IMG/VR virus record: IMGVR_UViG_2531839476_000020
Strand: one strand, 5' to 3'
DNA length: 25,625 bases
Source: a virus
Taxonomy: Duplodnaviria > Heunggongvirae > Uroviricota > Caudoviricetes
Both the position numbers and the translations under genes were made by a program. Shown piece by piece: positions 9,647-25,625 of the stretch (position 1 is the first letter of the stretch; each line of letters begins with the position of its first letter). The notes under the pieces are model-generated. The model searched no databases. It saw nothing but the letters and a program-made list of their open reading frames with translations, and had not been told where the DNA came from.

Positions 9647-9743
9647 ATAAAAACGTACTACTTCCCTAGTACACATGAGGAGTTGGGTCAGTTGGTTGCC
9701 AACCTGAACAGGCACCTTTAAGCCTGCTTCTGTTCGGGTACCT

Positions 9744-10052
9744 TTAAACCCGAAACAGTGAGGAGCGCGATTGCGATCCAGCCAGGGGAGGTTCGGCTGT
9801 ATACCCCTGTAAAGCTCTGCCCTGATTTCTTACAAACAGGCGGAGCCTTGTGTTTGCTTCGTGCCTTGCTCTGTTCTCCTTGCGGAATGAAACAGGCTCA
9901 GCGTCAAAAGTGATTTCGTATACCTCCGCATATTTCAGGGCAACCTTCCGTCTCAGTGACGGAGGCAGCCCCTGTAACTGCTGCTGAATCCACTCTTCGT
10001 CTGCCTGGCAGTACCTAGATGGCATCTCTGTCTGAACGTAATTCTGGGACAT
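9744..10052 (-). CDS. hypothetical protein, 102 aa, downstream of cro-like gene (cII-position ORF)
   Basis: ORF overlapping the cro-like 3' end by 38 nt; no recognisable motif and a low-complexity C-terminal tail. Confidence 0.35.
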   Translation of the reverse strand: MSQNYVQTEMPSRYCQADEEWIQQQLQGLPPSLRRKVALKYAEVYEITFDAEPVSFRKENRARHEANTRLRLFVRNQGRALQGYTAEPPLAGSQSRSSLFRV

Positions 10053-10302
10053 ACAAGCCCTTCACCTCCCCCGTGCGCGCTAAGCTTGGATGTGGAAAAA
10101 GCTCTGGTAGGTCTGGCCGAAATTCATACGCTTGGATCTTTCCGTCGACAGCTGCAACCAATAACGGCACAAATTCTGGTGAAATCTTGTTCTTGCAGTT
10201 CAACCAATCGCAGACTGTTGACTGGGCCTTTCCGCATCGCTTGGCTAAGGCTTGCTGACTTCCAAGAATCTCAATAGCTTTCTCTATGGCTTTATGTTTC
10301 AT
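10015..10302 (-). CDS. Cro-like HTH regulator
   Basis: Start chosen at MKHKAIEKAIEILGSQQALAKRCGKAQSTVCDWLN (RBS AGGAG 7 nt upstream). HTH motif present; divergent from the cI-like gene. Confidence 0.65.
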   Translation of the reverse strand: MKHKAIEKAIEILGSQQALAKRCGKAQSTVCDWLNCKNKISPEFVPLLVAAVDGKIQAYEFRPDLPELFPHPSLARTGEVKGLYVPELRSDRDAI

Positions 10303-10324
10303 AATCGCATCTCCTATTGAACGC

Positions 10325-10353
10325 ATAATAACAACAGGAAAAGCGATATTCAA
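10325..10353 (-). promoter_or_regulatory. PR-like sigma70 promoter for the cro-like/early-right operon
   Basis: Minus strand TTGAAT (10353-10348), 17-nt spacer, TATTAT (10330-10325), about 25 nt upstream of the cro-like RBS. Confidence 0.5.
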
Positions 10354-10367
10354 CGTTAAACATAGAA

Positions 10368-10389
10368 TATTTATCGGAAAGCCGATAAA
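10368..10389. promoter_or_regulatory. operator-like palindrome between cro-like and cI-like genes
   Basis: TTTATCGG-AAAG-CCGATAAA perfect 8-bp inverted repeat in the divergent promoter region. Confidence 0.5.
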
Positions 10390-10421
10390 CTAGCCAAGAT
10401 AGAGAGGGGAGGAAAATCGCA

Positions 10422-11114
10422 ATGACATTTTCAGAACGACTTGATTTAGCTATGCGCAACGCAAAATTTACGCAAGGTAGGCTGGCCAAAGAAGTGGGTA
10501 TGGCTCAGTCCAGTGTTAATCAACTACTTAACAAAGCCAACGGTTCCAGAAAAACAGTCGAAATAGCAAAAGTTTTGGGCGTTAACCCGGAATGGCTCGC
10601 ATCGGGTGTTGGCCCAATGGAAATCGTGACCTCTGCAGACTCACACCAAATACGTAACATTTCTGAAGATTGGGTTACTGATTCGTATGTCGTGGATGTT
10701 TTAGACATCAGATATAGTTGCGGACCTGGTAGTTATAACTCTGATTTTCCTGATATTGTCAGATCTATAGCGATAGAACCAGGATACGCATCAAGAGTTT
10801 TTGGCGGCAGACCAGCATCAGCAATCAAAGCAATAAACGCCCACGGCGACAGTATGAAAGGCACAATAGACCCTGAAGACTTGGTATTTGTAGATGTATC
10901 AGTTCGCACATTTAATGGTGATGGTATATACGCCTTTACATACTCTGGAACATCGCACATCAAAAGACTTCAAAAAATCAAAGATACTCTAACGGTGATA
11001 TCTGACAACCCAGCTTACAAGGATTGGGCTATCGAACCGGAAGACTTCGAACAACTTCACATTGACGGAAAAGTAATTGTCAGTTGGCCTATGACACTAC
11101 ACCGTTTTGCATAA
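10422..11114 (+). CDS. CI-type prophage repressor (N-terminal HTH + C-terminal S24/LexA-like peptidase)
   Basis: 230 aa; HTH LAKEVGMAQSSVNQLL; C-terminal GDSM serine motif and downstream Lys typical of autocleaving repressors; RBS GGAGG. Confidence 0.9.
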   Translation: MTFSERLDLAMRNAKFTQGRLAKEVGMAQSSVNQLLNKANGSRKTVEIAKVLGVNPEWLASGVGPMEIVTSADSHQIRNISEDWVTDSYVVDVLDIRYSCGPGSYNSDFPDIVRSIAIEPGYASRVFGGRPASAIKAINAHGDSMKGTIDPEDLVFVDVSVRTFNGDGIYAFTYSGTSHIKRLQKIKDTLTVISDNPAYKDWAIEPEDFEQLHIDGKVIVSWPMTLHRFA

Positions 11115-11132
11115 GCAAAAATCATTTAACCC

Positions 11133-11158
11133 GCCCACTCTTAAGTGGGCTTTTTTTT
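11133..11158 (+). terminator. intrinsic terminator after the cI-like gene
   Basis: GCCCACT-CTTA-AGTGGGC hairpin followed by TTTTTTTT. Confidence 0.6.
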
Positions 11159-11179
11159 GGGAAAAAATCGATAAACCGA

Positions 11180-11208
11180 TTGACAGGTGAAATCGGTAAA
11201 CCTATTAT
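11180..11208 (+). promoter_or_regulatory. PL-like sigma70 promoter with flanking operator-type inverted repeat
   Basis: TTGACA (11180-11185), 17-nt spacer, TATTAT (11203-11208). ACCGAT ... ATCGGT arms bracket the -35 and share the CCGAT/ATCGG motif with the operator at 10368-10389. Confidence 0.55.
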
Positions 11209-11257
11209 CTTGACATAGGTATCGAACTCACCAAAGCAATTATAGAGGATGAGAAAA

Positions 11258-11668
11258 ATGTCATCGTATATGGGATTACCAACAAATCAGCACGATGCTC
11301 TTGAGAATATTCAGCTCTTAGTAGGGACTGGTGCACTACTGTATAGCAGCAATAACCCTGAGTTAATTGAACTTGCCAGCTCCATCCTGGCTGTAACTCA
11401 AAAATATAGCCTCACCGCGTCACGTTTATGCAAACAAAATTTAGCTATTAATTCCCAGAATCGGATTCGCACCCAACGCGAAACCTGCGGCTTAACAACC
11501 GCCGAACTCGCTAGGCTGCTCGATCTCGATGAAGAAATTATCATCCAGTGGGAGAGCGGAGAGTACGAACCAACCATCAGCATGCTTATCCCTCTGGCTA
11601 ATGTTCTTGGCTGTGATCCAATGTTGTTATTGACTGATGCTTATAAACAAAATCAGGAGGAAGCATAA
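11258..11668 (+). CDS. HTH (XRE-family) domain protein, first gene of the PL-like operon
   Basis: C-terminal TQRETCGLTTAELARLLDLDEEIIIQWESGEYEPTISMLIPLANVLG is an XRE-type HTH; RBS AGAGGA upstream of the second ATG. Confidence 0.65.
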   Translation: MSSYMGLPTNQHDALENIQLLVGTGALLYSSNNPELIELASSILAVTQKYSLTASRLCKQNLAINSQNRIRTQRETCGLTTAELARLLDLDEEIIIQWESGEYEPTISMLIPLANVLGCDPMLLLTDAYKQNQEEA

Positions 11669-11669
11669 G

Positions 11670-11861
11670 ATGAAAATGTTCAAAGGCCTTACCAACGAAC
11701 CGGAGACAACTTTTCATCACATTGCCGTACTGCTTGAAGCGGGGTTAATCATTTCGGCTTCCGGTGATGAAGAATGTGATGAACTTTCGGATGATATCTT
11801 TTTACTGGCACAACAATACGCCAGAAGCGCATGCGATGCATTTAAGGAGCAAAGAACATGA
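11670..11861 (+). CDS. hypothetical acidic small protein (64 aa)
   Basis: RBS AGGAGG before ATG at 11670; tightly packed with neighbours. Confidence 0.5.
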   Translation: MKMFKGLTNEPETTFHHIAVLLEAGLIISASGDEECDELSDDIFLLAQQYARSACDAFKEQRT

Positions 11862-12049
11862 AAACTCCATTAAATATTCTTGAGGAAGTGGCAGCACAAA
11901 TAAAAGAGAATACATCAATGCTTGAATTTATATTTAAGAATTCGCCCGACTCAGGAGAGACAGACGATTATTTATGTTGCCTCATTCGCTCCATGAATAA
12001 AACCTGTGAAATGGCTTACGCGTATATCGACACACTGCGCAACGAATAA
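11858..12049 (+). CDS. hypothetical small protein (63 aa)
   Basis: ATGA start/stop overlap with the previous gene; RBS AAGGAG. Confidence 0.5.
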   Translation: MKTPLNILEEVAAQIKENTSMLEFIFKNSPDSGETDDYLCCLIRSMNKTCEMAYAYIDTLRNE

Positions 12050-12233
12050 AGAAAACTCAATAAACAATCACCCATAAAAACATAACGGTCTCTGGTCGGG
12101 AATTTCCACAACCTGAAAATGGTGGTGATGCATGAAAAACAGAAGTGCTTATAAAACCGCATTATTAATGGCTAATGCAGGATACTGGTCAGTTGCAATA
12201 CTGTTTCTCAGGAAAGCATACGGGAAATAACAA

Positions 12234-12593
12234 ATGACACATGAACCCATTAATACATATCGTCGCCGTATAGCTGTTGCGGCACTCCATCGAATAAAAC
12301 GTAAAACAGGTGGTAATCTGCTTATTGTTGACCTTCCTGATGGGAACATTACGACCATAGAAATAACTGAACAGTTTATAAACCAGTTGCTGTTACGCTT
12401 CGAAGGTATTACCCGTGGTGAATTGGGCCGGGTGGAGGGTGAAACCGAAATCCACACTGCATACCAGAATGCTATCGGGATTAATCAACATACTGAATAC
12501 CTGACTGAAACCGGAAAGTTAATTATAGACAACCTTTTTCAAGAGATTATTGATTACGCGAAAGAAAAATATATCAGCGGAGGAATTAACTGA
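12234..12593 (+). CDS. hypothetical protein (119 aa)
   Basis: ORF coupled (ATGA overlap) to the downstream gene. Confidence 0.5.
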   Translation: MTHEPINTYRRRIAVAALHRIKRKTGGNLLIVDLPDGNITTIEITEQFINQLLLRFEGITRGELGRVEGETEIHTAYQNAIGINQHTEYLTETGKLIIDNLFQEIIDYAKEKYISGGIN

Positions 12594-12808
12594 TGGCTAA
12601 TTTATCCCCTGTATCTGTTGTGCACGAAAAAGTGCAGATCGTTATGACAATTGAAAATGGCCAAGTCACAGGTGTCTGCAAAGTCCGCGATGGCGAGCTG
12701 ATTGCCAGCATGGATACATTCATACGGCTGGCAGAAAGAGCGGGGTATCAGATAACAGCACCTGCTCAGGAGGAAACCGGTGGCATTAACAGCAACACGC
12801 ATTCCTGA
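12593..12808 (+). CDS. hypothetical protein (71 aa)
   Basis: RBS GGAGG; start overlaps the upstream stop. Confidence 0.5.
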   Translation: MANLSPVSVVHEKVQIVMTIENGQVTGVCKVRDGELIASMDTFIRLAERAGYQITAPAQEETGGINSNTHS

Positions 12809-12994
12809 GCGGATCCACCGGCAGGCATTGCAGGTCCTGTTGTTGTACCGATGCCGACGGATATTTCCGCATCGGATACAGCGCACCGGATATCTCAGTC
12901 TGAAGGTTAACCGTCGCTGGCGGCTGTTATCGAAAGACGACGGCCGGAACTGGGAAGTAATGAGTCATGAACGTTATTCGGGAGAAATAAAGAA

Positions 12995-13387
12995 ATGATC
13001 GACAACCGCACCGCCAGCACCATTGACCAGGCATTACAGAAACATGATACACCCGTCGGCCCGTTATTTTTTGTAACACGCCACGGAAGAACAAAAAAAT
13101 GCCTCACCCGAAAAACGGCAATTCGTTACCTGGCATTCTTTATGACCACCCGCGCTTTTGAACGTTCAGGATTCCGACAACGCTATCCTGACAAGCGTTT
13201 TATCTTCAACAGGAATGAGATATGGAAACGTGGAGAATCAACCACAGAGTATACCCGCGCACACCAGCGAACAATCAGACGACTGCGCAGACTCATCGCC
13301 AGGAAACAGTATACAGAAAAATGGTTCAGAAAATATGACACATGGAGCGCCGGATATTACGAACTGATGGCAACAAAACCATTCTGA
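12995..13387 (+). CDS. hypothetical highly basic protein (130 aa)
   Basis: RBS GGGAGA; Arg/Lys-rich, suggesting nucleic-acid binding. Confidence 0.5.
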   Translation: MIDNRTASTIDQALQKHDTPVGPLFFVTRHGRTKKCLTRKTAIRYLAFFMTTRAFERSGFRQRYPDKRFIFNRNEIWKRGESTTEYTRAHQRTIRRLRRLIARKQYTEKWFRKYDTWSAGYYELMATKPF

Positions 13388-13447
13388 CGTAAACGAAATT
13401 AACCATGACGCAATTAAATAAGGCAAGCCGAATACATCAGGAGGACC

Positions 13448-13636
13448 ATGAACATTTATTTCAGAATAGTTATATCACTGGCAATTATCACATGTATTTA
13501 CGGATTAATCGTTCCGGCCCTCATATCAATGAAGGATACGGTAGCAGTGATTTCTGGCTTTGCTCTGGCGTGTCTGACCCCGCCCTGCATTTATGCCATT
13601 TATAAGGGTCTTTCTTTTTCTAAGGATAAAAGATGA
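13448..13636 (+). CDS. small two-helix membrane protein (62 aa), coupled to the SPFH lipoprotein gene
   Basis: RBS AGGAGG; two hydrophobic segments (IVISLAIITCIYGLIVPALI and VISGFALACLTPPCIYAIY); stop overlaps the next start (ATGA). Confidence 0.55.
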   Translation: MNIYFRIVISLAIITCIYGLIVPALISMKDTVAVISGFALACLTPPCIYAIYKGLSFSKDKR

Positions 13637-14460
13637 AAAAATTACTTTTTGCTTTAGCCCTTGTTCTGCCGACCATTGGCCTTGTCGGTTGCGATCGCGT
13701 TGAGCCTGGTAATGTGGGCATCAAAGTAAACAAACTGGGCGACGATAAAGGCGTCGGTGAAGTGGTCGGTGTTGGGCGCTACTGGACGGGATGGAACACT
13801 GAGGTTTACATCTTCCCGACCTTTAAGCAGATGAAGACCTACGATGATCCATTCAGTTTCCAGATGAGTGACGGTACAACCATCGGCTATCACATCGGCG
13901 TGGCCTACAAAGTTGATCCATCCAAAGTTACCACAGTCTTTCAGACCTACCGCAAAGGCGTGGACGACATTACCGACACCGACCTGCGCCAGAAGATAGC
14001 CGACGCACTCAACCGACTGGCCAGCAAAATGACCACCGACAAATTTATCGACGGCGGCAAGTCTGAGCTGCTGGATGCAGCTCTTAAAGACATTCAGGAA
14101 GAAATGACGCCCATCGGTATTCAGGTAATGAGCCTCTCATATGTGGGTAAGCCGGAGTACCCACCTACTGTTATCGACAGCATTAATGCCAAAGTCACGG
14201 CGAACCAGAAAACCCTGCAACGCGAGCAGGAAGTAAAACAGCGCGAAGCGGAAGCCAACATGTTGCGCGCGGAAGCTGCCGGACAGGCAGATGCGATTCG
14301 CACAAAAGCCCAGGCCGAAGCCGATGCTATTCGTTTACGCGGTGAAGCTCTGCGCCAGAACCCCGGTGTTATGGAGCTGGAAGCCATCAACAAGTGGAAC
14401 GGTACACTGCCGCAATACATGACCAGCGGTGCCAACACACCATTTATTCAGGTTAAGTAA
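13633..14460 (+). CDS. SPFH/band-7 (prohibitin-like) domain lipoprotein
   Basis: Lipoprotein signal MKKLLFALALVLPTIGLVGC (lipobox LVGC); SPFH-like core and an Ala/Glu/Arg-rich coiled-coil tail QREQEVKQREAEANMLRAEAAGQADAIRTKAQAEADAIRLRGEALRQ. Confidence 0.75.
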   Translation: MKKLLFALALVLPTIGLVGCDRVEPGNVGIKVNKLGDDKGVGEVVGVGRYWTGWNTEVYIFPTFKQMKTYDDPFSFQMSDGTTIGYHIGVAYKVDPSKVTTVFQTYRKGVDDITDTDLRQKIADALNRLASKMTTDKFIDGGKSELLDAALKDIQEEMTPIGIQVMSLSYVGKPEYPPTVIDSINAKVTANQKTLQREQEVKQREAEANMLRAEAAGQADAIRTKAQAEADAIRLRGEALRQNPGVMELEAINKWNGTLPQYMTSGANTPFIQVK

Positions 14461-14503
14461 TACATATGCCCGGTATTACACGCCGGGCTGTCTGGAGATA
14501 AAA

Positions 14504-15253
14504 ATGAATATTGTAACCATCAACAACAAACAGTTTCCGGTAATCGAATATCGCGGTCAGCGTGTTGTGACATTTGCAATAATTGATGACGTCCACCAGC
14601 GCCCGGAAGGTACCGCCCGTGCTGCGTTTAACCGCAACCGTTCTCACTTTATCGAAGGGGTGGATTTTCTTGAAATGACTGCGGACGTAATACGTACGGA
14701 GTCACTTTCTGATGCCTTTGCCGCGCGAACTGCCAAAGGGATCATTCTTTTCGAGTCTGGTTACCTGATGTTGACGAAGCCTTTTAACGATGCTCTTGCA
14801 TGGCAGGTTCAGCGCGAACTGGTTAACAGCTATTTCCGAACTCACGCGCCGCTGACGGAAATGGAGATGATCGCTGCAATGGCCGCCGATGCCGTTCGCC
14901 AGCAGAAGCGCCTGAGTCATGTTGAAGAGAAGATCGAAACGGTCACCAAAGCTGTGGAGAACATCAAACGCGGCACAATGCGCACCGGATATGTCGGTTA
15001 CCGCCAGGTGGTAGCCAAAAGCGGAATGAGTGACGCCAAGTGTCGGAATCTGGTCAACGCCTACCACATCCCTACCGACACGCACGAATTTATGACTCCG
15101 GACGGTCTGTTGTCTCGCAGGGCTGTCGTCGAGCTTGAGACATTTATGGCGGCGTTCCACCAAATGATGTCAGAGGCTGAACCACGCGGCACACGCTGGT
15201 ATCACCCGAAGATGGGGCTTTTTCAGGTAATCGGATGGGAGGATAAAGCATGA
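14504..15253 (+). CDS. ORF6N/KilA-N domain protein (antirepressor-like)
   Basis: Start at MNIVTINNKQFPVIEYRGQRVVTFAIIDDVH (RBS GGAG); N-terminal domain typical of phage ORF6N/KilA-N DNA-binding modules. Confidence 0.65.
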   Translation: MNIVTINNKQFPVIEYRGQRVVTFAIIDDVHQRPEGTARAAFNRNRSHFIEGVDFLEMTADVIRTESLSDAFAARTAKGIILFESGYLMLTKPFNDALAWQVQRELVNSYFRTHAPLTEMEMIAAMAADAVRQQKRLSHVEEKIETVTKAVENIKRGTMRTGYVGYRQVVAKSGMSDAKCRNLVNAYHIPTDTHEFMTPDGLLSRRAVVELETFMAAFHQMMSEAEPRGTRWYHPKMGLFQVIGWEDKA

Positions 15254-15818
15254 TCATCCAGTCAAAACTTATTCGCGCCGCTCTGGTGTGCGCTGCTAAA
15301 AACGACGTTCGTTATTACCTGAACGGTCTTCACATCACGCCAAAACATATTGAGGCAACCAATGGTTTCGTAGCACTGCGCATGACTCACGGCATCCGGA
15401 CGAAGAAAAACATCATTGTCCAGTTCGAAGGTGGCGTCCCGGCCAAAGCCGAAACGACAGAGCTGATTTTTAGTAAAGAGCCGATCCTGTTCATCGCGAC
15501 CAGTTTCAGCGCCGGCTGTCCATTACCGGCATTAAATTGGTGGACGGTTGTTTTCCGGATTTGGAACGCATCATTCCGAAAAAATTTGACCTCTGTACAC
15601 ACCCGGTGATCCAGGCGGGTTACCTGAGTTATCCAGAGAAGATGTTTGGTCGTGAGCGTAAATTTATTCCCGTCCAGTTACGTTCCTCCGGTGACGGGCA
15701 AGCGGTCAGAATTCAGTTTGATTCCATCATCAACTCAATGTATGGCAATCCTGAATTTGTTGTGATGCCTTGTCGTGATCATGGCGATTTCAATGTGGCT
15801 CAGGAGCATCCGGAATGA
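15250..15818 (+). CDS. DnaN (beta sliding clamp) domain II-III-like protein, apparently split by a 1-nt frameshift near 15505-15512
   Basis: NDVRYYLNGLHI...ATNGFVALRM parallels DnaN QDVRYYLNGMLFE...TDGHRLA. The second frame ITGIKLVDGCFPDLERIIPKK parallels FTSKLVDGRFPDYRRVLPK, and the C-terminal EFVVMPCR parallels AYVVMPMR. Junction is at GCCGGCTGTCC. Confidence 0.5.
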
Positions 15819-15941
15819 AAATCGAATACCAGGACGCCGCAGGAGGTGAATCAATGAGCTGGCCTGATGCAATCGTAACTCTGGGGGTGGTATTCGCAGT
15901 AGCGTTTGTTGTGTTCTCAATTTGTCGATGGGGATAACCAC

Positions 15942-16184
15942 ATGTTCGCTTTGATTCAACGCGGTCAGATATACACGGACAGAGCCGGATACCCCGTGGT
16001 GATTACTCGCATCACTGAGCACTCAGTGTTCTTTCGACGGATGGACGGACGATCCGGGCGGGTACGCATTGGTGAGTTAAACTGCCTGTTCGAACATATT
16101 GACCACCAGGAGTACCGCAAAATTCTCGCGGACACTGAGCAGGAAAAGCACCTGAAAAAATTACGAGCCATAAAAAGGAAGTAA
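15942..16184 (+). CDS. hypothetical protein (about 80 aa)
   Basis: Start moved to MFALIQRGQIYTD; sits in the xis-proximal region. Confidence 0.45.
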   Translation: MFALIQRGQIYTDRAGYPVVITRITEHSVFFRRMDGRSGRVRIGELNCLFEHIDHQEYRKILADTEQEKHLKKLRAIKRK

Positions 16185-16186
16185 AG

Positions 16187-16336
16187 AATGAATAAAGCAT
16201 TTGAACAATGGGTCCACCAGCGTTACGGCAATCGCTATGACCTGACGCGAGATGTTGACGGCTTCTACTGTCGTGAAGTTGTGAAGCGAATGTTTGACGT
16301 GTGGTGCCACTGCCGTGGGCTGAGTGTTATGTGAGG
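16187..16336 (+). CDS. hypothetical small Cys-rich protein (49 aa), below the ORF-track length cutoff
   Basis: ATG at 16187 with RBS AAGGAAG; MNKAFEQWVHQRYGNRYDLTRDVDGFYCREVVKRMFDVWCHCRGLSVM. Confidence 0.3.
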
Positions 16337-16342
16337 TGATGT

Positions 16343-16552
16343 ATGGGGCTGGATTGCGTGCCTATATCAACCTACTGCCGCGACGCGGGAGAAACGGTTG
16401 ATGCCGTTAACAAACGGATACAAAGAGGAATATGGAAAGAAGGGGTTCATGTATTAAAAGTCGACGGAGTTAAAGAACGCTGGGTCGACTTAATAGAGGT
16501 TTCAAAATGGGCAAGAAAGAACAAGGATTATTATCTCTGCCAAGAGGAGTAA
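16343..16552 (+). CDS. excisionase-like protein
   Basis: 69-aa ORF immediately upstream of, and overlapping, the integrase gene, as in xis-int pairs. Confidence 0.55.
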   Translation: MGLDCVPISTYCRDAGETVDAVNKRIQRGIWKEGVHVLKVDGVKERWVDLIEVSKWARKNKDYYLCQEE

Positions 16553-17685
16553 CTATTCGTAAGCATAAAACTGCTTCAACACTAGTTATCACTTTCACAT
16601 ATAAAGGGGTTCTTTGCAGGGAGCCCCTGTCTCGGCTTGAGGCAAATACACGTGGTATTAAATATGCTGAGCGCCTGCTAGGGGAGATACAAAATCAGAT
16701 CGCCAGCGGAACGTTTGAATATGCGAAATATTTCCCCAGTTCCAAAAAACTGGAGTTATTCGGTGTAGTAAAGAAAACCAAAAATATTAAGTCCTATCTT
16801 GATGAATACCTGAAAATTTGCATGAACCGCAATCTGTCGCCGTCAACCATTGGCGGTTACGAAAAATGTCTATCAGCACTATCAGAACTACATAAACTAC
16901 ATGTAACAGAATTGACGCCTGCGGTACTAAAAAATTGGATAGCCAGCCGAAAAACTAAGCTGAAAACAATCAGGAATAACCTGTCATTTCTGCGCAGCGC
17001 CATTGATGAGGCTGTAACTGATGGCCTGTTGACTATTAACCCGGTAACTCTTGTCAGCGCCAGCCGGTATCACGTGGTCGACAGTAAACCGAACGCCGAC
17101 GATTACGAAGTTGATCCGTTTGCGCCTGCGGAAACCAGTGCCATATATCAGCACTGCAAGTATCAGGAATGGCAGAATCTGTTCCGCTTCGCCTTCAATA
17201 CAGGGCTACGCAGCTCTGAGCTATGCGCATTACGTTGGACCGATATCGACTTTATAGGTAATACAGCGCACATACAGGCGGCCAGTGTCGTAGGGGTACT
17301 TAAAGGCACCAAGACAAAAGCCGGTACCCGTAAGGTGGAGCTGAACAGTGAGGCGCTGGCGGCCCTGCAGGCGCAGAAGCAATACACCTTTATGAAAAGT
17401 GAGTTCATATTCAGCGATCCGAAAACGGGAGATCCCTGGACGAACGCCGACGCTATCCGTAAAAAAGCATGGGTGCCGACCCTGAAAAAAGCTGGTGTGC
17501 GCTACCGTAACCCGTACCAGACGCGCCACACATTCGCCACCAGACACATTAGCCAGGGTGTAAACCTTTTCTGGCTTGCCGGGCAGATGGGGCATAAGGG
17601 GCCGGAAATGCTGTTCCGCAATTACGGTAAATACCTGGCTGAATACGACGGGAAAACCGCAATGGAATCTGGAATGAAGAAGTGA
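16507..17685 (+). CDS. tyrosine site-specific recombinase (lambdoid prophage integrase)
   Basis: 392 aa; the C-terminal region carries the conserved residues of the tyrosine recombinase catalytic set (Arg in FNTGLRSSEL, His-x-x-Arg in TRHTFATRH, His in MGHKG, Tyr in LFRNYGKYL); N-terminal arm-type DNA-binding region. Confidence 0.9.
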   Translation: MGKKEQGLLSLPRGVTIRKHKTASTLVITFTYKGVLCREPLSRLEANTRGIKYAERLLGEIQNQIASGTFEYAKYFPSSKKLELFGVVKKTKNIKSYLDEYLKICMNRNLSPSTIGGYEKCLSALSELHKLHVTELTPAVLKNWIASRKTKLKTIRNNLSFLRSAIDEAVTDGLLTINPVTLVSASRYHVVDSKPNADDYEVDPFAPAETSAIYQHCKYQEWQNLFRFAFNTGLRSSELCALRWTDIDFIGNTAHIQAASVVGVLKGTKTKAGTRKVELNSEALAALQAQKQYTFMKSEFIFSDPKTGDPWTNADAIRKKAWVPTLKKAGVRYRNPYQTRHTFATRHISQGVNLFWLAGQMGHKGPEMLFRNYGKYLAEYDGKTAMESGMKK

Positions 17686-17697
17686 TTTGAAGAAAAA

Positions 17698-17721
17698 ACC
17701 CGGCAAATGCCGGGTCTTTTT
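17698..17721. terminator. bidirectional intrinsic terminator between convergent int and cargo genes
   Basis: CCCGGC-AAAT-GCCGGG hairpin flanked by AAAAAA upstream and TCTTTTT downstream. Confidence 0.65.
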
Positions 17722-17726
17722 GATGG

Positions 17727-18494
17727 TTATTCTGTCGCGCCACCTATCGAAACATAATCATGAAATTGATCGTCAATGAGTCGGTCCTTACAGATAACAT
17801 GTACAATGTGACGACAACAGTTTTCATCATCATACGCACGACCCCAGCGAACAATCTCATCTACAGACAGATCATTCGCACTCCATGGCAAAGTACCTGA
17901 AACGCCACGCGCACCTGGACCAAGTATGTCCATAAATTTCTTCGTGCGTGAATTGTAGATCCGTACCTCGGCAATTCGAATGATGCTACTAGCCCAAAGA
18001 GCACCACCGGCAATACTTTGAATGTTATCGCAGATGAGAAACTCATGCTTTCGCGCAAGCATTTTATAGATCTCACGCGCCAAACCTGCTGATTGGAAAT
18101 CCTGTGCGATAACAGCGCTTTTCACTTGCTTTCCGGTCATCATCTGACCGTTCTCTTCGATAAAATTAAAGTCGTTGAACTGTATACGACCTATTCTTAT
18201 CGTTTTGTTATCGTCTACCATATCAAGACCCAAGAGGGTATTGACCAGATCCTGCATTGGAACCTTCGAATCAAGAAGGTCACTGCCATAGTCTAAAAAA
18301 AAGTCGTCGGTGGAACATCCCAGTTGATACACATCCAAGTAGTACTGAAACTCACCAGAACTGACAATGTACTCATCAGCCCTCAGTAAGCCAGCCTCGG
18401 CAGTGAAAAAATAGAATGACTCAATAAGACGTTTTTCGCCAAATGGCGTAATGTTCAAGTCCTTGTTATATGAAGGTATTAACGCAGGAGCCAT
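17727..18494 (-). CDS. hypothetical protein (255 aa), second gene of an int-to-att cargo operon
   Basis: Long ORF convergent with int, 11 nt downstream of the 113-aa gene; no recognisable catalytic motif. Confidence 0.6.
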   Translation of the reverse strand: MAPALIPSYNKDLNITPFGEKRLIESFYFFTAEAGLLRADEYIVSSGEFQYYLDVYQLGCSTDDFFLDYGSDLLDSKVPMQDLVNTLLGLDMVDDNKTIRIGRIQFNDFNFIEENGQMMTGKQVKSAVIAQDFQSAGLAREIYKMLARKHEFLICDNIQSIAGGALWASSIIRIAEVRIYNSRTKKFMDILGPGARGVSGTLPWSANDLSVDEIVRWGRAYDDENCCRHIVHVICKDRLIDDQFHDYVSIGGATE

Positions 18495-18505
18495 TCAGCA
18501 ACCTT

Positions 18506-18847
18506 TTAATGGTAGTTAATTTCCCTGTAGTTCTTCTGCATGTATAGAGCAATTGCCGCTTCAATTTTCTTCAGCAGATTACTGCTTACATACTGAGGAT
18601 ACTGATCTGCTGGCTTCACAACATAGCGCAATTTTTCTTTGTTCATGGCGATCTCAGCGAACGGGATCACGTCACCGTCACGAACCTCATTGTTCAATGT
18701 CACAATAAACAGCTGACGTGCCGGGGAGACACGATCACTCAGTCTTCTCACGAAGAACTCGTTTGCTGTGTTTGAGTCAACAAAAGAACTGACGAGTTGA
18801 GTCCGACGCTCAATCGTCTGTATCGATCTTCTCGCTACTGTTCTCAT
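18506..18847 (-). CDS. hypothetical protein (113 aa), first gene of an int-to-att cargo operon
   Basis: RBS GAGGAG 6 nt upstream of the ATG; preceded by a structured leader. Confidence 0.55.
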   Translation of the reverse strand: MRTVARRSIQTIERRTQLVSSFVDSNTANEFFVRRLSDRVSPARQLFIVTLNNEVRDGDVIPFAEIAMNKEKLRYVVKPADQYPQYVSSNLLKKIEAAIALYMQKNYREINYH

Positions 18848-18886
18848 GCTAGTCTCCTCAACACTTCACTGGCTGTGCAGTGAAGG

Positions 18887-18924
18887 TACAAAAAGCCACT
18901 GATGATAACAGCGTCATCAGTGGC
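18887..18924 (-). terminator. terminator-like hairpin inside the leader of the 113/255-aa operon (possible attenuator)
   Basis: 11-bp stem GCCACTGATGA/TCATCAGTGGC followed on the minus strand by TTTTTG; a second 8-bp hairpin CTTCACTG/CAGTGAAG (18864-18885) lies between it and the RBS. Confidence 0.45.
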
Positions 18925-19176
18925 CCTTGATGGTGATAACCGCAGTTACCTAAATAGTATGATATTACCTTACGGGTAATTCTTCAACGATTGCTCTGAA
19001 TTGAATAGTCTTGAAGTGCTATGAACAGCACAAAACAGCGCTAATCACCGCCCCAGTGGCGCCTAAACACTTCAAAATGTTGGACAGAATCAGGACGTTA
19101 GAGGTACTACAATATGCACGTAAAATGCACGTGAGGTATTTTAAATTAGAAAAATCATTAATATTCAATTGGTTAA

Positions 19177-19217
19177 GAATTTTTCGGATACGGGTTCAAC
19201 TCCCGCCAGCTCCACCA
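19177..19217 (+). other. ssrA: 3' fragment of ssrA (tmRNA) ending in CCA; att core shared by the prophage right end and the P4-type island left end
   Basis: GAATTTTTCGGATACGGGTTCAACTCCCGCCAGCTCCACCA matches my recollection of the E. coli tmRNA 3' end (T-arm, acceptor stem, CCA). No matching 5' acceptor strand or tmRNA body lies upstream. Confidence 0.7.
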
Positions 19218-19382
19218 CTTTTTAGTTGTTTGAAGTTCAATGAAGTCTACTAAGCCCACACAGCACAAGCTCTGCGGGCTTTTTTACGTCTATTGTCGTC
19301 CAGTGAGAATTGCTGAGAACTACGAGTTATGGCACCCTGAATGGGACCCACTAAGAAGGGTCCAAAAACCGAGGGTCCCAAA

Positions 19383-20612
19383 ATGGCAAAAATCGCTAAG
19401 AAGCTCACTGACACTGAAATCAAAAGCACCAAGCCAGCCGATAAAGAAATCAACTTGTTTGACGGTGATGGTCTGATTCTACGAATCGCTCCTTTGGCGA
19501 AAGGAGGCAAGAAAAATTGGTATTTCAGGTATGCAGTACCAGTGAGCAAGAAAAGAACCAAAATGAGCCTTGGGACATATCCTCACCTTACCCTTGCAAG
19601 AGCCAGAGCCTTACGTGATGAATATCTCTCCTTTCTGGCAAATGGTGTTGATCCCCAAATCCATAACAACGATAAGGCGAAGGCATTAAAGAGTGCTACT
19701 GAGCACACTCTCCAAGCCGTAGCGCGGAAATGGTTAGATGAGAAGGTAAAGACATCAGGTATCTCACAAGACCATGCAGCAGACATCTGGCGCAGCTTAG
19801 AGAGAAATGTCTTTCCCGGTCTGGGTAATGTCCCTATCAATGAGATCCGACCTAAGCTCTTAAAACAACACCTTGATCCTATTGAGCAACGAGGCGTATT
19901 GGAAACTCTACGCCGTATCATTTCACGTCTGAATGAAATCTTCCGGTGGGCAGCTACTGAAGAACTTATTGAGTTCAACCCGGCTGACAACCTTGGTCAA
20001 AGATTCAGTAAACCAAAAAAGCAAAATATGCCTGCCCTTCCCCCAAGCGAATTGCCAAGGTTTATGGAATCTTTGACGAATGCGTCAATCCGGTTGGAAA
20101 CACGTATGCTAATTGAATGGCAATTGTTGACATGGGTTCGTCCGGGTGAAGCCGTTCGCGCAAGGTGGTCTGATATTGATACAACCAACAGCATTTGGAA
20201 CATTCCTGCTGATTTCATGAAAATGAAAAAGCTTCACAAAGTTCCTTTGAGTAAAGAAGCTTTGCGCATCCTTGAATTAATGAAATCAATAAGTGGGCAT
20301 AGAGAATGGGTTTTCCCCAGCATAAAAGCGCCTCTTAATCATATGCATGAACAAACAGCCAACGCAGCTATCATCCGAATGGGGTTCGGAGGCGAGCTTG
20401 TAGCTCACGGTATGCGTTCTATTGCACGAACAGCGGCAGAGGAGTCTGGTAAATTCAGAGCTGAAGTTCTTGAGGCAGCGCTTGCCCACTCGAAAAAAGA
20501 TGAAATTATCGCAGCATACAATCGTGCAGAATATCTGATAGAGCGACAGAGTTTGATGCAATGGTGGAGTGATTACGTTCAAGCTCAAAGATCAAATGCT
20601 CTGGTAGCCTAA
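19383..20612 (+). CDS. P4-type tyrosine integrase (IntA-like)
   Basis: Start at MAKIAKKLTDTEIKSTKPADKEINLFDGDGLILRI, the typical P4-family integrase N-terminus; C-terminal AHGMRSIARTAAEESG and catalytic Tyr region; lies directly 3' of the ssrA fragment. Confidence 0.9.
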   Translation: MAKIAKKLTDTEIKSTKPADKEINLFDGDGLILRIAPLAKGGKKNWYFRYAVPVSKKRTKMSLGTYPHLTLARARALRDEYLSFLANGVDPQIHNNDKAKALKSATEHTLQAVARKWLDEKVKTSGISQDHAADIWRSLERNVFPGLGNVPINEIRPKLLKQHLDPIEQRGVLETLRRIISRLNEIFRWAATEELIEFNPADNLGQRFSKPKKQNMPALPPSELPRFMESLTNASIRLETRMLIEWQLLTWVRPGEAVRARWSDIDTTNSIWNIPADFMKMKKLHKVPLSKEALRILELMKSISGHREWVFPSIKAPLNHMHEQTANAAIIRMGFGGELVAHGMRSIARTAAEESGKFRAEVLEAALAHSKKDEIIAAYNRAEYLIERQSLMQWWSDYVQAQRSNALVA

Positions 20613-21138
20613 GTATCAGAATAGCTAATATAATCCTGAAGGTAAAGAAAATGGAAACCCTATTCAAAGTTTTTGAAAAATTTAGTTCCAGACCACTTTT
20701 TTTTATTTTTTTCGGACTCTCACTTTGTGAATTTTTTCAGAAACAATCTGTTCTGATGAATCCATCAGCAGATAACATCGCGAAATTATTCGCAGCCATG
20801 ATATTAGTTGTTTTTTTACTTGGGGATTTGAATGGCTAATCTTCAAGTTCAATGTAAACCTTGAACCTCATGATCAAGGCGATATTGGACCAACAATTGG
20901 AACGGCTACTTTAGCTGTATACTTAGTTTATGCCTTTCACTTTCTCAGTGAAAATCCTGAAGCATTAAATTTAAAGTTATTAACTAACTCTGGCTTTATA
21001 TACAGCACAACTCTATTATTATTCTCATTAGAATGCATGAAGCTTAGAAGACTTAAACAAAAATAAACAACATCATTGTGATGATAAATATAAAATAGGC
21101 ATGGCGAAAAAAAAATCACCACGCCTAAAATATAATAA

Positions 21139-22887
21139 TTATGGTAGCATCATTGATACATAATCCACACCAATCCTTGAGCTATACTGAGACGCTATAG
21201 CCTGATATCTTTCTGCATAACCAGTTCTCAGTTGAGATTTAAGTTTGAGTCGGACAGGAACATTTTGCACGTTGCCATCCATATTACTTAAAAACACGGC
21301 AGAAATAATATTTTTTTCTTCGCCATCAACTGTTGTTCCATGATTCAACACCACCATATAATCAACAACAGGAAGCGTTTTATCCCCTTCGAAAATAGAG
21401 AGATATTTTCTTTGATTTTTATGCATTACATATATATATTTCGAATGTTCAGCAAATGGCAATGCTTTACTCTGACTGGCGTTAAAAAGCTCCAGAACTT
21501 TAATGAGCCTGTGCGGACTTAATCTTACATGGTGAGGGTCGTTACCCTGAGTAGGAACCAAATCACATGCCGCAGATACACATAAATACCATTTGTTCGA
21601 CTCTGTATCAAAGAAAATAGTGCCAGTAGAAATATGACCATCTTCAAAATTCTTTGAAGACAAATTCATATTTAAAGCATGATACATTTCGTGATAAGTA
21701 TCATTATTTGATGGCAGATCCATTTTTGAAGAGCAATATTGGAGCAATGCAGCAACTCCGCTGTTAGCGTATTCATTTGAATAGCTATCAAAAACACTTT
21801 TGATAAATTCATCCAGCGTATTATTATTTTTAAGTCTTTGATAAAGCTCTTCTGATAAATTACCAAATACAAAGTCAATATTTCTACATCTAATATCAGG
21901 CGAGTCTGATTTTAATATCTCATTTAACCACGCAGCTTGACCGTAATGATCGTTAGCCAAATGATTTACAAAAGATAAAGCCTCAGCTTCGATTGCATTC
22001 TGAATTTCAGATTTTATTAACTGATAATAAGATGGTTTCCATTCAATGAGAGAATCATTGAGAGTTTGCCAAATCCTATCTCCATCGTTTTCATGATCAT
22101 CTTGAACCTTATGAAATAGGGAGACAAAGATATTACCACATTGAATCCATTTTACTCCGCTTTCATCACCCCGAATGACATTGCCAGATGTGTTGCTAGA
22201 AATAATTGCATTTCTAGACACAGCATATTCTGCAATCATTTTTGCAATGAAGTTTTTATCCTTTTGTTCCTCCAACACAGCATCATCATGTATTAATCTT
22301 TTAATTCTTCTACAAGGCTTACTGTCTTTAATATAGGCTATTGTTTCATCTCTTGTGAGAGCTTTATTACCATTATCATTTAAGTTCGGTAATACAACGT
22401 CTTCCCAATAACTTTGGACATCTTCATTATCGTAGTCAATGATCAAGCTGTTGATATCCAGAGCACCTTTGAGAGTCGATGATATCTGCATCCAAACCGT
22501 TTCTAAATTCTCTCTAGTATATATTACAATCATATTTAAATGATCGGAGTCTTTCAAATCTTGTAATAGTTTAAGTGTTTTATCAGGTGCATTATTATCA
22601 AGATGATAATCTACAATAATAAGATCTGATTTTCTAATCCGATCCACATCGAAATTAACAGAACCATTGTCAACATCACAAATCATATTTTTAGATTGAA
22701 AAAAGCTCTCAAGAGTAGCGGCTCGTTTAGATGAGTCAATTTTGTTGTAGTCTAAATCAACTTCGTTATTCAACGCCCTGATTGATTCAGAATACGTCAG
22801 AAAATCGTCATCAATCATGACAACGGAACGAATTGCATTTTCGCAGAAAGTTTTCTGGACAAGAGAATTATAATTTGCCACTGTCAT
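21139..22887 (-). CDS. receiver (REC) domain protein with an uncharacterised ~450-aa C-terminal domain; candidate effector of a two-component-like module
   Basis: N-terminus has REC hallmarks: acidic pair VVMIDDD, putative phospho-acceptor Asp in DLIIVDYHLD, conserved Thr in NMIVIYT. The rest has no motif I can name. Start assigned to the second ATG (22887), preceded by TGGAG and abutting the kinase stop (TAATATG). Confidence 0.75.
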   Translation of the reverse strand: MTVANYNSLVQKTFCENAIRSVVMIDDDFLTYSESIRALNNEVDLDYNKIDSSKRAATLESFFQSKNMICDVDNGSVNFDVDRIRKSDLIIVDYHLDNNAPDKTLKLLQDLKDSDHLNMIVIYTRENLETVWMQISSTLKGALDINSLIIDYDNEDVQSYWEDVVLPNLNDNGNKALTRDETIAYIKDSKPCRRIKRLIHDDAVLEEQKDKNFIAKMIAEYAVSRNAIISSNTSGNVIRGDESGVKWIQCGNIFVSLFHKVQDDHENDGDRIWQTLNDSLIEWKPSYYQLIKSEIQNAIEAEALSFVNHLANDHYGQAAWLNEILKSDSPDIRCRNIDFVFGNLSEELYQRLKNNNTLDEFIKSVFDSYSNEYANSGVAALLQYCSSKMDLPSNNDTYHEMYHALNMNLSSKNFEDGHISTGTIFFDTESNKWYLCVSAACDLVPTQGNDPHHVRLSPHRLIKVLELFNASQSKALPFAEHSKYIYVMHKNQRKYLSIFEGDKTLPVVDYMVVLNHGTTVDGEEKNIISAVFLSNMDGNVQNVPVRLKLKSQLRTGYAERYQAIASQYSSRIGVDYVSMMLP

Positions 22888-22888
22888 A

Positions 22889-24607
22889 TTAGAACTCCAC
22901 TCCATTGAACTGGATCACAAAATTAGCGCCATCTTTTATTAAATAGTTATCGCCTTCATCAGGTTCTGAATACCATATTTTATGATGTGCAACAGCAAGG
23001 TTTTCTCGACATAGATACAGACCTACCCCATGTCCATTTGCTCTTTTGCTATAAAATAGTTCAAATAGTCGCGGGATATCATCGGTATCAATTGCCGGAC
23101 CAGAATTTGCTATGATAACCAAAGAATTCACAAAACCAATCTTTATGAGCCTATTATTTGACAGACTGACCCAATACATTGCATTGTTGATAATATTAGT
23201 AAAAACAGGATAGATCCTTGATGGTATATCTGTTATTGCGATTTGCTTAAACTCTTCACTAAATTCAATAGTTATTCGTTGCCGTTCGAAACGCTCCCCA
23301 AAGAACTTCAGGACATAATCCATGATATTTTTTCCAGTTATTCTCTGCCTGGATTGATAACCTGATATTTTCAAAGGTGATAAGAAACGTATTTGTTGAG
23401 TAAGCGATCTGTGAGCATTTAACGCCAATGAAAAACCAGGGTGTTCTTTTACAGAAGTAGGAAGAGAGTTTAGTCCTCTGGTTACCATAGAATCCATTTC
23501 TTCAAGTTCATGAGATATTATCTCAACACTAATACCTAACTGTGCAAGCGCGTTTAAACTTTTAGCTTTTTCTTCAAAATATGAGCGTTCTTCTTCAGAT
23601 AATGAGAATGCTGAATCTAAGTTTATACCTTCAAATAATCTATCGAGACCTTTTATTATTGATTGATATTTGAAAGTTAGGGTATCAACTGACTCAACAT
23701 ATAAACTATCGAGCAAATTAAACACATTTTCAATTTGTGAATCATTATCTATTGAATCAACAACTGATATAGTTTTAGCATAATAATCACTTCGATCAAC
23801 CTTTATTTCATCGGCCCATTTTTTTAAAAGAGAATGTATCTTCTCCTCTATCGTGTTATTAAACTTAGTTAGTTTAGAATTAATAATACCTTGATTTTTT
23901 TCAAGGTGATTTTTCGCTGACAATGAAGGCTCAAGTTTATTTAATTCAGAATCAAGTTTATTAATTGCTAACTTCATTTGTAGAATATACGCAGAGAACT
24001 CATTAAATTTATCTCTGTAGTCTCTATATTTCTCTTCATACATTCCAAGTTTTGGAGGTTTGATAGGCGTTTTAATTTCACTGCGCAACGCATCTAAGTT
24101 TGTAAGATCACTGTCTATAATTTTAAGATAGTTTAAATCTAACGAACCATCAGTTTTATCAAGCTTAGTTTTCAGCCTTTTAACAGCCTCCAAGGAAGCA
24201 TCAAGAACTGGTGTCTGATTCTTCAAAGCTTCTGAAAAACTTTTTTGTGTTGATTTTCGAGCTTGTTGTTGAGCAGATTTTCTTAACTCTTTTTCACGCT
24301 TAACTTGTTCTAAAAGCTCTTTACGGTCATCAGAACGTGAACCAAAAAATCTATCAGCAAGTTCAGTTAACAAATTAGATATAATAGTTTTCAGTTCTCT
24401 TGCAGCCTGGTTTCTTATGAATCCCTCTCTCCCCGACTTATCTTTCAGCTCTTTATTACTGGATTGAGTAATTCCAATATAACCAAAAATCCTTCTATTA
24501 GACCAATAATATCGCCCTGCATTCCATGAACGTCTTTCTTCTATCTGGAAGAAATCATTATCTACTCGACCATAAGGTAATACTCTCAAGCTATCCCTAA
24601 AAATCAT
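22889..24607 (-). CDS. cytoplasmic histidine-kinase-like protein (HisKA H-box + HATPase_c), probably 5'-truncated by IS3
   Basis: H-box ISVEIISHELEEMDS; N-box IYPVFTNIINNAMYW; G1 IIANSGPAIDTDDIPRLFELFYSK; G2 GHGVGLYLCRENL. No transmembrane segment and a long coiled-coil middle. The frame stays open for 41 codons upstream of the ATG at 24607, up to the IS3 terminus at 24729. Confidence 0.75.
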   Translation of the reverse strand: MIFRDSLRVLPYGRVDNDFFQIEERRSWNAGRYYWSNRRIFGYIGITQSSNKELKDKSGREGFIRNQAARELKTIISNLLTELADRFFGSRSDDRKELLEQVKREKELRKSAQQQARKSTQKSFSEALKNQTPVLDASLEAVKRLKTKLDKTDGSLDLNYLKIIDSDLTNLDALRSEIKTPIKPPKLGMYEEKYRDYRDKFNEFSAYILQMKLAINKLDSELNKLEPSLSAKNHLEKNQGIINSKLTKFNNTIEEKIHSLLKKWADEIKVDRSDYYAKTISVVDSIDNDSQIENVFNLLDSLYVESVDTLTFKYQSIIKGLDRLFEGINLDSAFSLSEEERSYFEEKAKSLNALAQLGISVEIISHELEEMDSMVTRGLNSLPTSVKEHPGFSLALNAHRSLTQQIRFLSPLKISGYQSRQRITGKNIMDYVLKFFGERFERQRITIEFSEEFKQIAITDIPSRIYPVFTNIINNAMYWVSLSNNRLIKIGFVNSLVIIANSGPAIDTDDIPRLFELFYSKRANGHGVGLYLCRENLAVAHHKIWYSEPDEGDNYLIKDGANFVIQFNGVEF

Positions 24608-24728
24608 TAGTCCTGCATACTTTTTGGCCTTAAGATCAAAGTGGGAATGTTCACGTTCAGTATGTGATGTATTTTGTGAAAGGAATTCAAACGTTCCTAT
24701 CTGAAGCTCAAATGGGCCGACCCCTGCG

Positions 24729-25625
24729 TGATCCTACCCACGTAATATGGACACAGGCCTAAGCGAGGTTCTTGTTTTCAAATTGTTCCGGACTGAGGCC
24801 GCCACACCAACTGTGCCGCCGCCACCGATTGTAATCACATTCGATATAATTAAACACCGTTGCCCGCATTATTTCCCGGCTGATAAAGTGTTCTCCATGG
24901 ATACATTCCACTTTCAGCGAATGAAAGAAGCTTTCCACGCAGGCATTATCGTAGCAGCAACCTTTTGCGCTCATACTTCCACGCAGATTATGCCGCTTCA
25001 GTTGCGCCTGATAATCTGCTGAACAGTACTGGCCTCCACGGTCCGTGTGAACGATAACGTTCCGGGGCCTCTTACGCCGCCACAGCGCCATCTGCAGGGC
25101 ATCGCAGGCCAGTTGCGCCGTCATGCGTGGCGACATTGACCAGCCAATAACGGCACGTGACCACAGGTCAATGACCACTGCCAGATACAGCCAGCCTTCA
25201 TCTGTACGTAAGTACGTGATGTCTCCTGCCCACTTCTGGTTCGGGCCACTGGCGTAAAAATCCTGCTCCAACAGATTTTCTGACACAGGCAGGCCGTGTG
25301 CGCGGTAGCTGACCGGGCTGAACTTCCGGGAGGCCTTTGCCCTCAGTCCCTGACGGCGCAGGCTTGCCGCCACGGTTTTTACGTTAAAGGGGTAACCCTG
25401 AGCACGCAGTTCATCCGTCAGGCGTGGGGCACCGTAACGCTGTTTTGACCGGGTAAAAGCCGCGAGGACAACGCTGTCGCAGTGTTGGCGGAACTGCTGA
25501 CGCGTGCTTATCCTTGTCCGCCGCTGACACCACGTATACCAGCCGCTGCGGGCCACCCGGAGCACGCGGCACATTGCTTTGATGCTGAACTCAGCCTGAT
25601 GTTTTTCAATAAAGACATACTTCAT
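24729..25625 (-). mobile_element. IS3 insertion sequence, orfB-side portion (element continues beyond the window end)
   Basis: Terminal inverted repeat TGATCCTACCCACGTAATATGGACACAGGCCTAAGCGAGG begins at 24729 and is followed by the complete orfB. Confidence 0.9.
24759..25625 (-). CDS. insF: IS3 transposase OrfB (DDE integrase domain)
   Basis: 288 aa matching my recollection of IS3 OrfB; start codon is at the last three bases of the window, so orfA and the frameshift site lie outside. Confidence 0.9.

Follow-up and report, generated by a model that had tools for sequence, protein, structure and literature searches.

What is the 3′ end of a tmRNA gene, and nothing else of that gene, doing between two distantly related integrases? 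The question is raised by a phage-derived sequence of 25,625 nucleotides (IMG/VR record IMGVR_UViG_2531839476_000020), hereafter called the window. A preliminary description, based on the letters of the sequence, had explained the fragment by two elements that entered the ssrA site one after the other. This explanation is borne out by the alleles found in other genomes, where empty and singly occupied sites exist and the breakpoints lie at the attachment core. More specifically, it is very probable that a lambda-like phage integrated into the 3′ end of an ssrA gene that was already followed by a decayed P4-type island.

The ssrA Fragment

The fragment, window 19177-19217, reads GAATTTTTCGGATACGGGTTCAACTCCCGCCAGCTCCACCA and is a displaced ssrA 3′ end. 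When it was aligned to the intact E. coli ssrA of three genomes (alignment A1), the segment CGGGTTCAACTCCCGCCAGCTCCACCA at 19191-19217 was identical in 27/27 positions to ssrA 337-363, which comprises the T-arm, the 3′ acceptor strand and ACCA. Allowing for a 2-nt gap takes the similarity back to 19177 (37/41 columns), and none was found further to the left in the same alignment. In this leftward extension intact ssrA has GGAATTTCGGACGC and the fragment AGAATTTTTCGGATAC, a difference retained in all lysogens. A blastn search of the window with the full 363-nt E. coli ssrA paired positions 328-363 with 19182-19217 (34/36, E 5e-11); its remaining matches were chance-level 10-11-mers, and positions 1-327 had no real match in the window. 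The 27-mer occurs once in the window and was not recovered in any of 100 shuffles, even at up to 3 mismatches. The final ~19 bp of this core (19199-19217) also span the core of P4-type/CP4-57 integrases.

The Rfam tmRNA model, run in E-value mode, scored the fragment at 18.6 bits (gathering threshold 47; E 2e-5 for the 801 nt searched), and its alignment was limited to the 3′ T-arm and acceptor end. Neither ARAGORN nor Rfam at gathering thresholds found a tmRNA or tRNA gene in the whole window. The 5′ acceptor strand, the tag reading frame and the pseudoknots upstream of the T-arm, all expected of a functional tmRNA gene, are missing from the fragment. The preliminary description had spoken of about 41 nt matching the tmRNA 3′ end, with no tmRNA body or 5′ acceptor strand, situated between the integrase and cargo of a prophage and a P4-type integrase. 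The genes on both sides are as it had stated, the body is indeed missing, and the similarity to tmRNA held when put to an actual alignment.

Neighboring Elements

The features around the fragment are listed in Table 1.

Table 1. Features of the prophage-island junction, in window coordinates.
Feature	Coordinates	Strand	Evidence or remark
Excisionase (xis)	16343..16552	+	phrog_2917, E 2.5e-41
Prophage tyrosine integrase	16507..17685	+	Pfam Arm-DNA-bind_2 (E 4e-21) and Phage_integrase (E 2e-19)
Two cargo ORFs, 255 aa and 113 aa	17727-18494 and 18506-18847	-	Between int and attachment site
Int-proximal attP arm, now left half of the junction	18848..19190 (left limit approximate)	+	Stays with the core whichever right flank follows
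Tandem ATGCACGT repeats, 11 bp apart	19114..19133	+	Candidate arm-type integrase sites
Degenerate phage-borne ssrA-like extension	19177..19190	+	2 substitutions and a 2-nt insertion (A1)
27-bp core identical to ssrA 3′ end	19191..19217	+	Segment containing the crossover (prophage integrase)
Island-side flank, former attL arm	19218..19382	+	Identical to the sequence after intact ssrA in prophage-free strains
Hairpin and T-run, island-borne terminator-like element	19255..19285	+	Pattern call and fold
P4-type integrase	19383..20612	+	Pfam Arm-DNA-bind_3, Phage_int_M and Phage_integrase
Island cargo	20651..24607	.	Small membrane ORF (frameshifted T7 allele) and low-GC gene pair
Low-GC (0.32-0.35) gene pair	21139-22905 and 22889-24607	- and -	One gene with Response_reg_2 (PF19192), the other with HEF_HK (PF19191) and HATPase_c
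IS3-family element, truncated right end of the remnant	24759..25625	-	Runs off the window

On the left, the prophage integrase adjoins the fragment junction and not the intact ssrA. Its relationship to the island integrase is remote (25% over 179 aa), as is that to P4 Int, and we infer that the enzyme uses the 27-bp ssrA core. The two ORFs behind it correspond to phrog_3307 and phrog_2594, both labelled 'unknown function', and had no match in Pfam, NCBIfam or PADLOC; the interval from int to the attachment site has the look of a slot for variable cargo. In the adjoining phage arm the tandem ATGCACGT repeats, a motif with no other occurrence in the 25.6-kb window, are putative arm-type integrase sites. 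The 20-mer ATGCACGTAAAATGCACGTG of this arm is also present in the opposite arm, beside intact ssrA, in O103:H2 strain PV16-126 (L004 6372-6391) and in the prophage record PhiR12_1, and E110019 carries a variant of it.

The lambdoid character of the prophage was read from the annotation of the E110019 prophage (99.6% identical), not from the left-hand genes of the window itself. That annotation comprises a LexA-family repressor, helicase/toprim, antiterminator Q, holin/lysozyme, terminase, an HK97-type head and a gpJ tail. A full-length match to the sRNA family STnc100 (RF02076), the sole Rfam hit in the window at gathering thresholds, was additionally detected within the prophage at 4732-4904 on the minus strand (108 bits, gathering threshold 47).

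On the right, the P4-type integrase scored 440.6 bits with NCBIfam PRK09692 (cut-off 434) and is 34% identical to phage P4 Int over its full length (E 2e-82) and 48% identical to K-12 IntA. It reads away from the core and lies on the same strand, with the core ending at 19217 and the gene starting at 19383, and the spacing is equal in strain 503025. The terminator-like hairpin in the intervening flank, called like our other terminators by a simple pattern match, is homologous to the hairpin after K-12 ssrA (A1). In prophage-free strains it stands behind intact ssrA; in the window it is orphaned behind the fragment.

As regards the island cargo, the membrane ORF (20651-21067, plus strand) carries a T8-to-T7 change at the T run ending at ~20817, which leaves 62 aa as compared with the 138 aa of WP_000448925.1. 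The 62-aa allele was found in 557 blocks of the assembly collection, in prophage-free and prophage-bearing contexts alike, and since it is so widespread it is probably not a sequencing error. The low-GC gene pair had no PADLOC system match. The same P4-type integrase and short ORF were observed in contig 28 of Logan assembly SRR13981719 (L071), directly after a BapA-like giant adhesin and its type I secretion genes instead of smpB. In that contig the island cargo extends further, with a relaxase gene among it; the kinase-like gene is also longer (988 aa, HATPase_c_3) and is followed by a DNA methylase. This contig may represent another species or a fuller form of the island.

The IS3 element is annotated at the same position in PV16-126, and a truncated ygaQ comes next in both PV16-126 and 503025. 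A distal core repeat (attR) of the island was found neither in the rest of the window nor in 12 kb of downstream sequence in PV16-126. Given the lack of this repeat and the ending at IS3 and then truncated ygaQ, the island is a ~6-kb remnant and not a complete mobile element, its far end having been lost next to IS3.

Nearest Relatives and the Position of Intact ssrA

None of 5,426 complete E. coli genomes contains the whole window. The O103:H2 strain PV16-126 matches positions 15827-25624 at 98.3%, and essentially at 100% over 18400-20700, while E110019 matches 2332-19217 at 99.6%. The prophage of the window is thus a mosaic: its int-att end matches, together with the island, PV16-126 (window 15827-25625), and its early, replication and lysis regions match the E110019 prophage (window 1-16347). 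The early region of PV16-126 differs and contains an Arg/Arg/Ile tRNA trio that is missing from the window.

In both relatives an intact smpB-ssrA is situated at the far left end of the prophage, 53 kb upstream of the fragment in PV16-126 and 48 kb upstream in E110019. Type III effector genes, tail, head, terminase, lysis and early genes, xis and int lie in between, and a terminator-like hairpin is found in the arm beside ssrA, ~130-150 nt after the CCA. The intact gene had been predicted at exactly this end of the prophage. The prediction is correct for PV16-126 and E110019, and for the genome from which the window derives the same arrangement is suggested by these relatives, which are 98-100% identical around the junction.

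Window 15835-19206 is also 99.3% identical to the PhiR12 prophage records, whose hosts are listed in GenBank as K-12 MG1655 and E. coli C. The PhiR12_1 record, from an MG1655 lysogen, has at one end genuine 3′ sequence of ssrA, to which the dinI-side arm is attached. Judged by their sequence, these records agree with lysogeny at ssrA by a phage that carries this int-att module. A literature search on phage PhiR12 returned no relevant paper.

Occupied and Unoccupied Alleles of the Site

Comparison across genomes places the breakpoints at the core. The prophage matches of E110019 and Z1323HEC0393 stop exactly at window 19217, and identical phage arm and core sequences are followed by either of two right flanks, both starting immediately past the CCA. 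The first is the island flank CTTTTTAGTTG, present in the window, PV16-126 and four IMG/VR contigs. The second, in E110019 and two IMG/VR contigs, is the flank of the unoccupied site (ATCATGATTGGACGG / ATCATGATTGG), which directly follows intact ssrA in 1,386 genomes and also follows the CP4-57 distal repeat in K-12.

The island without the prophage was searched for with a synthetic junction made of the last 300 nt of ssrA and window 19218-19617. In prophage-free strains this ssrA-island join was matched at 100% identity over 700 nt, and it was covered to at least 80% in 959 complete E. coli genomes. Strain 503025 has smpB and ssrA followed by the same integrase (WP_001341819.1) and cargo, and then by IS3, truncated ygaQ and glaH. 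Alignment to an ssrA locus lacking the elements had been proposed as a check; at this locus, which lacks the prophage, smpB-ssrA is directly followed by the island integrase, and the breakpoints lie at the core. The tandem junction itself is present in 88/5,426 complete E. coli genomes, among them the O26:H11 reference strain 11368. A 58-nt scan with the phage arm plus the fragment recovered six IMG/VR contigs, none of them identical to the window, and had no match among GTDB species representatives. The junction of ssrA with the phage arm was found in 51 IMG/VR contigs, none of which also carries the fragment.

The fragment had also been interpreted as attR of the prophage and attL of the island. 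Its role as a junction of both elements stands, and attR and attL are to be taken as labels of map order only. The attL is a former one and no longer working, because the far end of the island has been removed.

Order of Integration and Alternative Readings

The island preceded the prophage at ssrA, because prophage-free strains hold the same IS3-truncated remnant. In prophage-free 503025, IS3 lies at the same 5,542 nt from the ssrA end and ygaQ is truncated alike. Moreover, the remnant would be unable to integrate in its present form, as a second island-type core is missing both from the window and from the 12 kb downstream in PV16-126. The reverse order, i.e., the prophage first and the island later into the core duplicated at the prophage's distal junction, is mechanically possible, given that the fragment keeps the whole 3′-terminal core of CP4-57-type integrases. 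However, the identical remnant stands directly at intact ssrA where there is no prophage, it was not movable in the form, devoid of a distal repeat, that it has in PV16-126, and island-only genomes number 959 as compared with 88 carrying the tandem junction. We therefore consider the reverse order very unlikely.

A decayed ssrA pseudogene, either a second copy or the original gene minus its 5′ body, would involve no phage integration and would account for ssrA being represented by its 3′ end only. Yet what precedes the fragment is not deleted chromosome but a phage arm, which accompanies the integrase module in different chromosomal settings and has a repeat motif in common with the arm beside intact ssrA, and the similarity stops cleanly at the CCA, where the alternative flanks start. 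This reading is in our opinion even less probable than the reverse order.

We give still less credence to an unintegrated attP or a misassembly in place of a chromosomal junction, although the same junction occurs in the public 'phage' records phi467 and PhiR12_5. These records are prophage excerpts with overshooting boundaries. In a true attP the core would be followed on the right by the dinI-side phage arm, whereas the window has there the island sequence that comes after ssrA in prophage-free chromosomes, and a misassembly is at odds with the recurrence of the junction in 88 independently assembled complete genomes. Finally, chance similarity to tmRNA has nothing but the shortness of the match in its favor and is practically negligible in view of the 27/27 identity, the 0/100 shuffles at ≤3 mismatches, the blastn E-value of 5e-11 and a position exactly at the recombination breakpoint. 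All of these readings were rejected.

A Model for the Junction

Integration of the phage behind an island already in place would proceed as follows. The attP would carry a copy of the final 27 bp of ssrA, and the phage tyrosine integrase, aided by arm-type sites in both arms, would recombine the phage and chromosomal cores. Intact ssrA, at the far left of the prophage, would then end in identical sequence supplied by the phage, and a terminator-like hairpin, likewise from the phage, would come next. The ssrA tail originally present would be shifted by ~50 kb and come to lie between the int-proximal phage arm (left) and the old island flank (right), so that the fragment would serve as a junction of both elements, distal for the prophage and formerly proximal for the island. 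Integration would thereby keep the tmRNA unchanged and swap its 3′ trailer.

On the sequences compared, the crossover must have fallen within the 27 bp. To the left of them the intact gene has the bacterial GGACGC and the fragment the phage GGATAC, and past the CCA one of the two copies continues into phage-specific and the other into chromosome-specific sequence. By analogy with other integrases whose targets are tRNA genes, strand exchange is likely to have taken place in or near the 7-nt T-loop between its T-stem arms.

Comparison With Known Systems

The closest known counterparts are O26:H11 strain 11368 (NC_013361.1) and O103:H2 PV16-126, which have at the same locus a lambda-like prophage with xis, an Arm-DNA-bind_2 integrase and the ssrA fragment, followed by a P4-type integrase identical to that of the window (WP_001341819.1), with 98-100% identity at the junction. 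In 11368 the effector genes espN/nleL lie at the left end of the genome stretch that was read, and smpB-ssrA is further left, outside that stretch. The prophage of the window differs from those of 11368 and PV16-126 in its early and replication region, which resembles the E110019 prophage, and its int-att cargo consists of two unknown ORFs in contrast to the DUF4760 gene of 11368. In the int-att slot of other related prophages we observed a DarT/NADAR pair (CP010119.1, locus L072) or no gene at all (L070 and L073). Sp17 of O157:H7 Sakai and CP-933Y of EDL933 are presumably prophages of this type, too.

The island has its classic intact counterpart in the cryptic P4-like prophage CP4-57 of K-12, the integrase gene of which, intA, lies immediately 3′ of ssrA in the same orientation as the island integrase (48% identity). 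The flank is homologous to the island flank of the window, including the hairpin after ssrA (A1). The att core of CP4-57 is contained in the final ~19 nt of ssrA, and the K-12 distal repeat reads ACTCC-GCCAGC-CCACCA. In contrast to the ~6-kb remnant of the window, which has other cargo and has lost its distal end at IS3, CP4-57 measures 22 kb and has kept its distal repeat (psaA). CP4-57 still excises, and its excision deletes T357 of ssrA and so damages the gene (PMC10107115).

In tandem arrays at tRNA and tmRNA genes, successive elements occupy the 3′ end of one RNA gene, each restoring the gene, and a displaced 3′ fragment is left between them. The junction of the window is the same in kind, with the cores of two integrase subfamilies overlapping within one 27-bp segment. 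In 'Traffic at the tmRNA gene' (J Bacteriol, 2003), Williams reportedly described the tmRNA gene as a heavily used target that integrative elements also occupy in tandem. In STEC and EPEC, tandem prophages sharing one att are common (PMC8112680).

A further resemblance concerns the Salmonella sRNA IsrM (RF02763), as window 19208-19285 aligns to both ends of the model, including the terminator hairpin. The 5′ end of the model overlaps the ssrA-derived core, and its 3′ end corresponds to the island-borne hairpin. The score, however, is 53 bits against a gathering threshold of 376, and the central 253 nt are missing. The segment is thus no IsrM gene and has with it only a common att-flank ancestry. 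The isrM gene of S. Typhimurium LT2 is flanked by STM2762 and STM2763 (PMC2330248). IsrM itself may begin in an ssrA-derived att site.

Implications

It is unlikely that the fragment is anything more than a scar, whether as a landing site, as a transcribed mini-locus or through an effect of the swapped ssrA trailer and terminator, even if these three are taken jointly. Since complete cores for both integrase types are kept, the fragment could serve as a secondary landing site, letting the ssrA locus gain more elements. The fragment and the island hairpin might form a transcribed mini-locus (19208-19285), because they match the Salmonella IsrM model at both ends. With its 3′ trailer and terminator replaced by phage sequence, ssrA could differ in the processing or abundance of the tmRNA precursor; if so, ribosome rescue would be modulated by gain or loss of the prophage, in analogy to the excision of CP4-57.

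The arrangement as such is already known and ordinary, is present in many published E. coli genomes and leaves the picture of integration at the tmRNA gene unchanged. Its practical consequence is that the fragment sets the true right boundary of the prophage at 19217, and that the P4-type integrase and the genes following it belong to another, older element. Several records cross the junction into the island integrase, namely LN997803.1 (phi467) at 33002-34228, PV340554.1 (PhiR12_5, L006 6549-6860) and the IMG/VR contigs L010, L011, L012 and L014. The prophage boundaries of these records have been drawn too far to the right, and the island integrase is wrongly included. The junction also tells which of the two elements arrived first at a locus known as a hot spot of integration.
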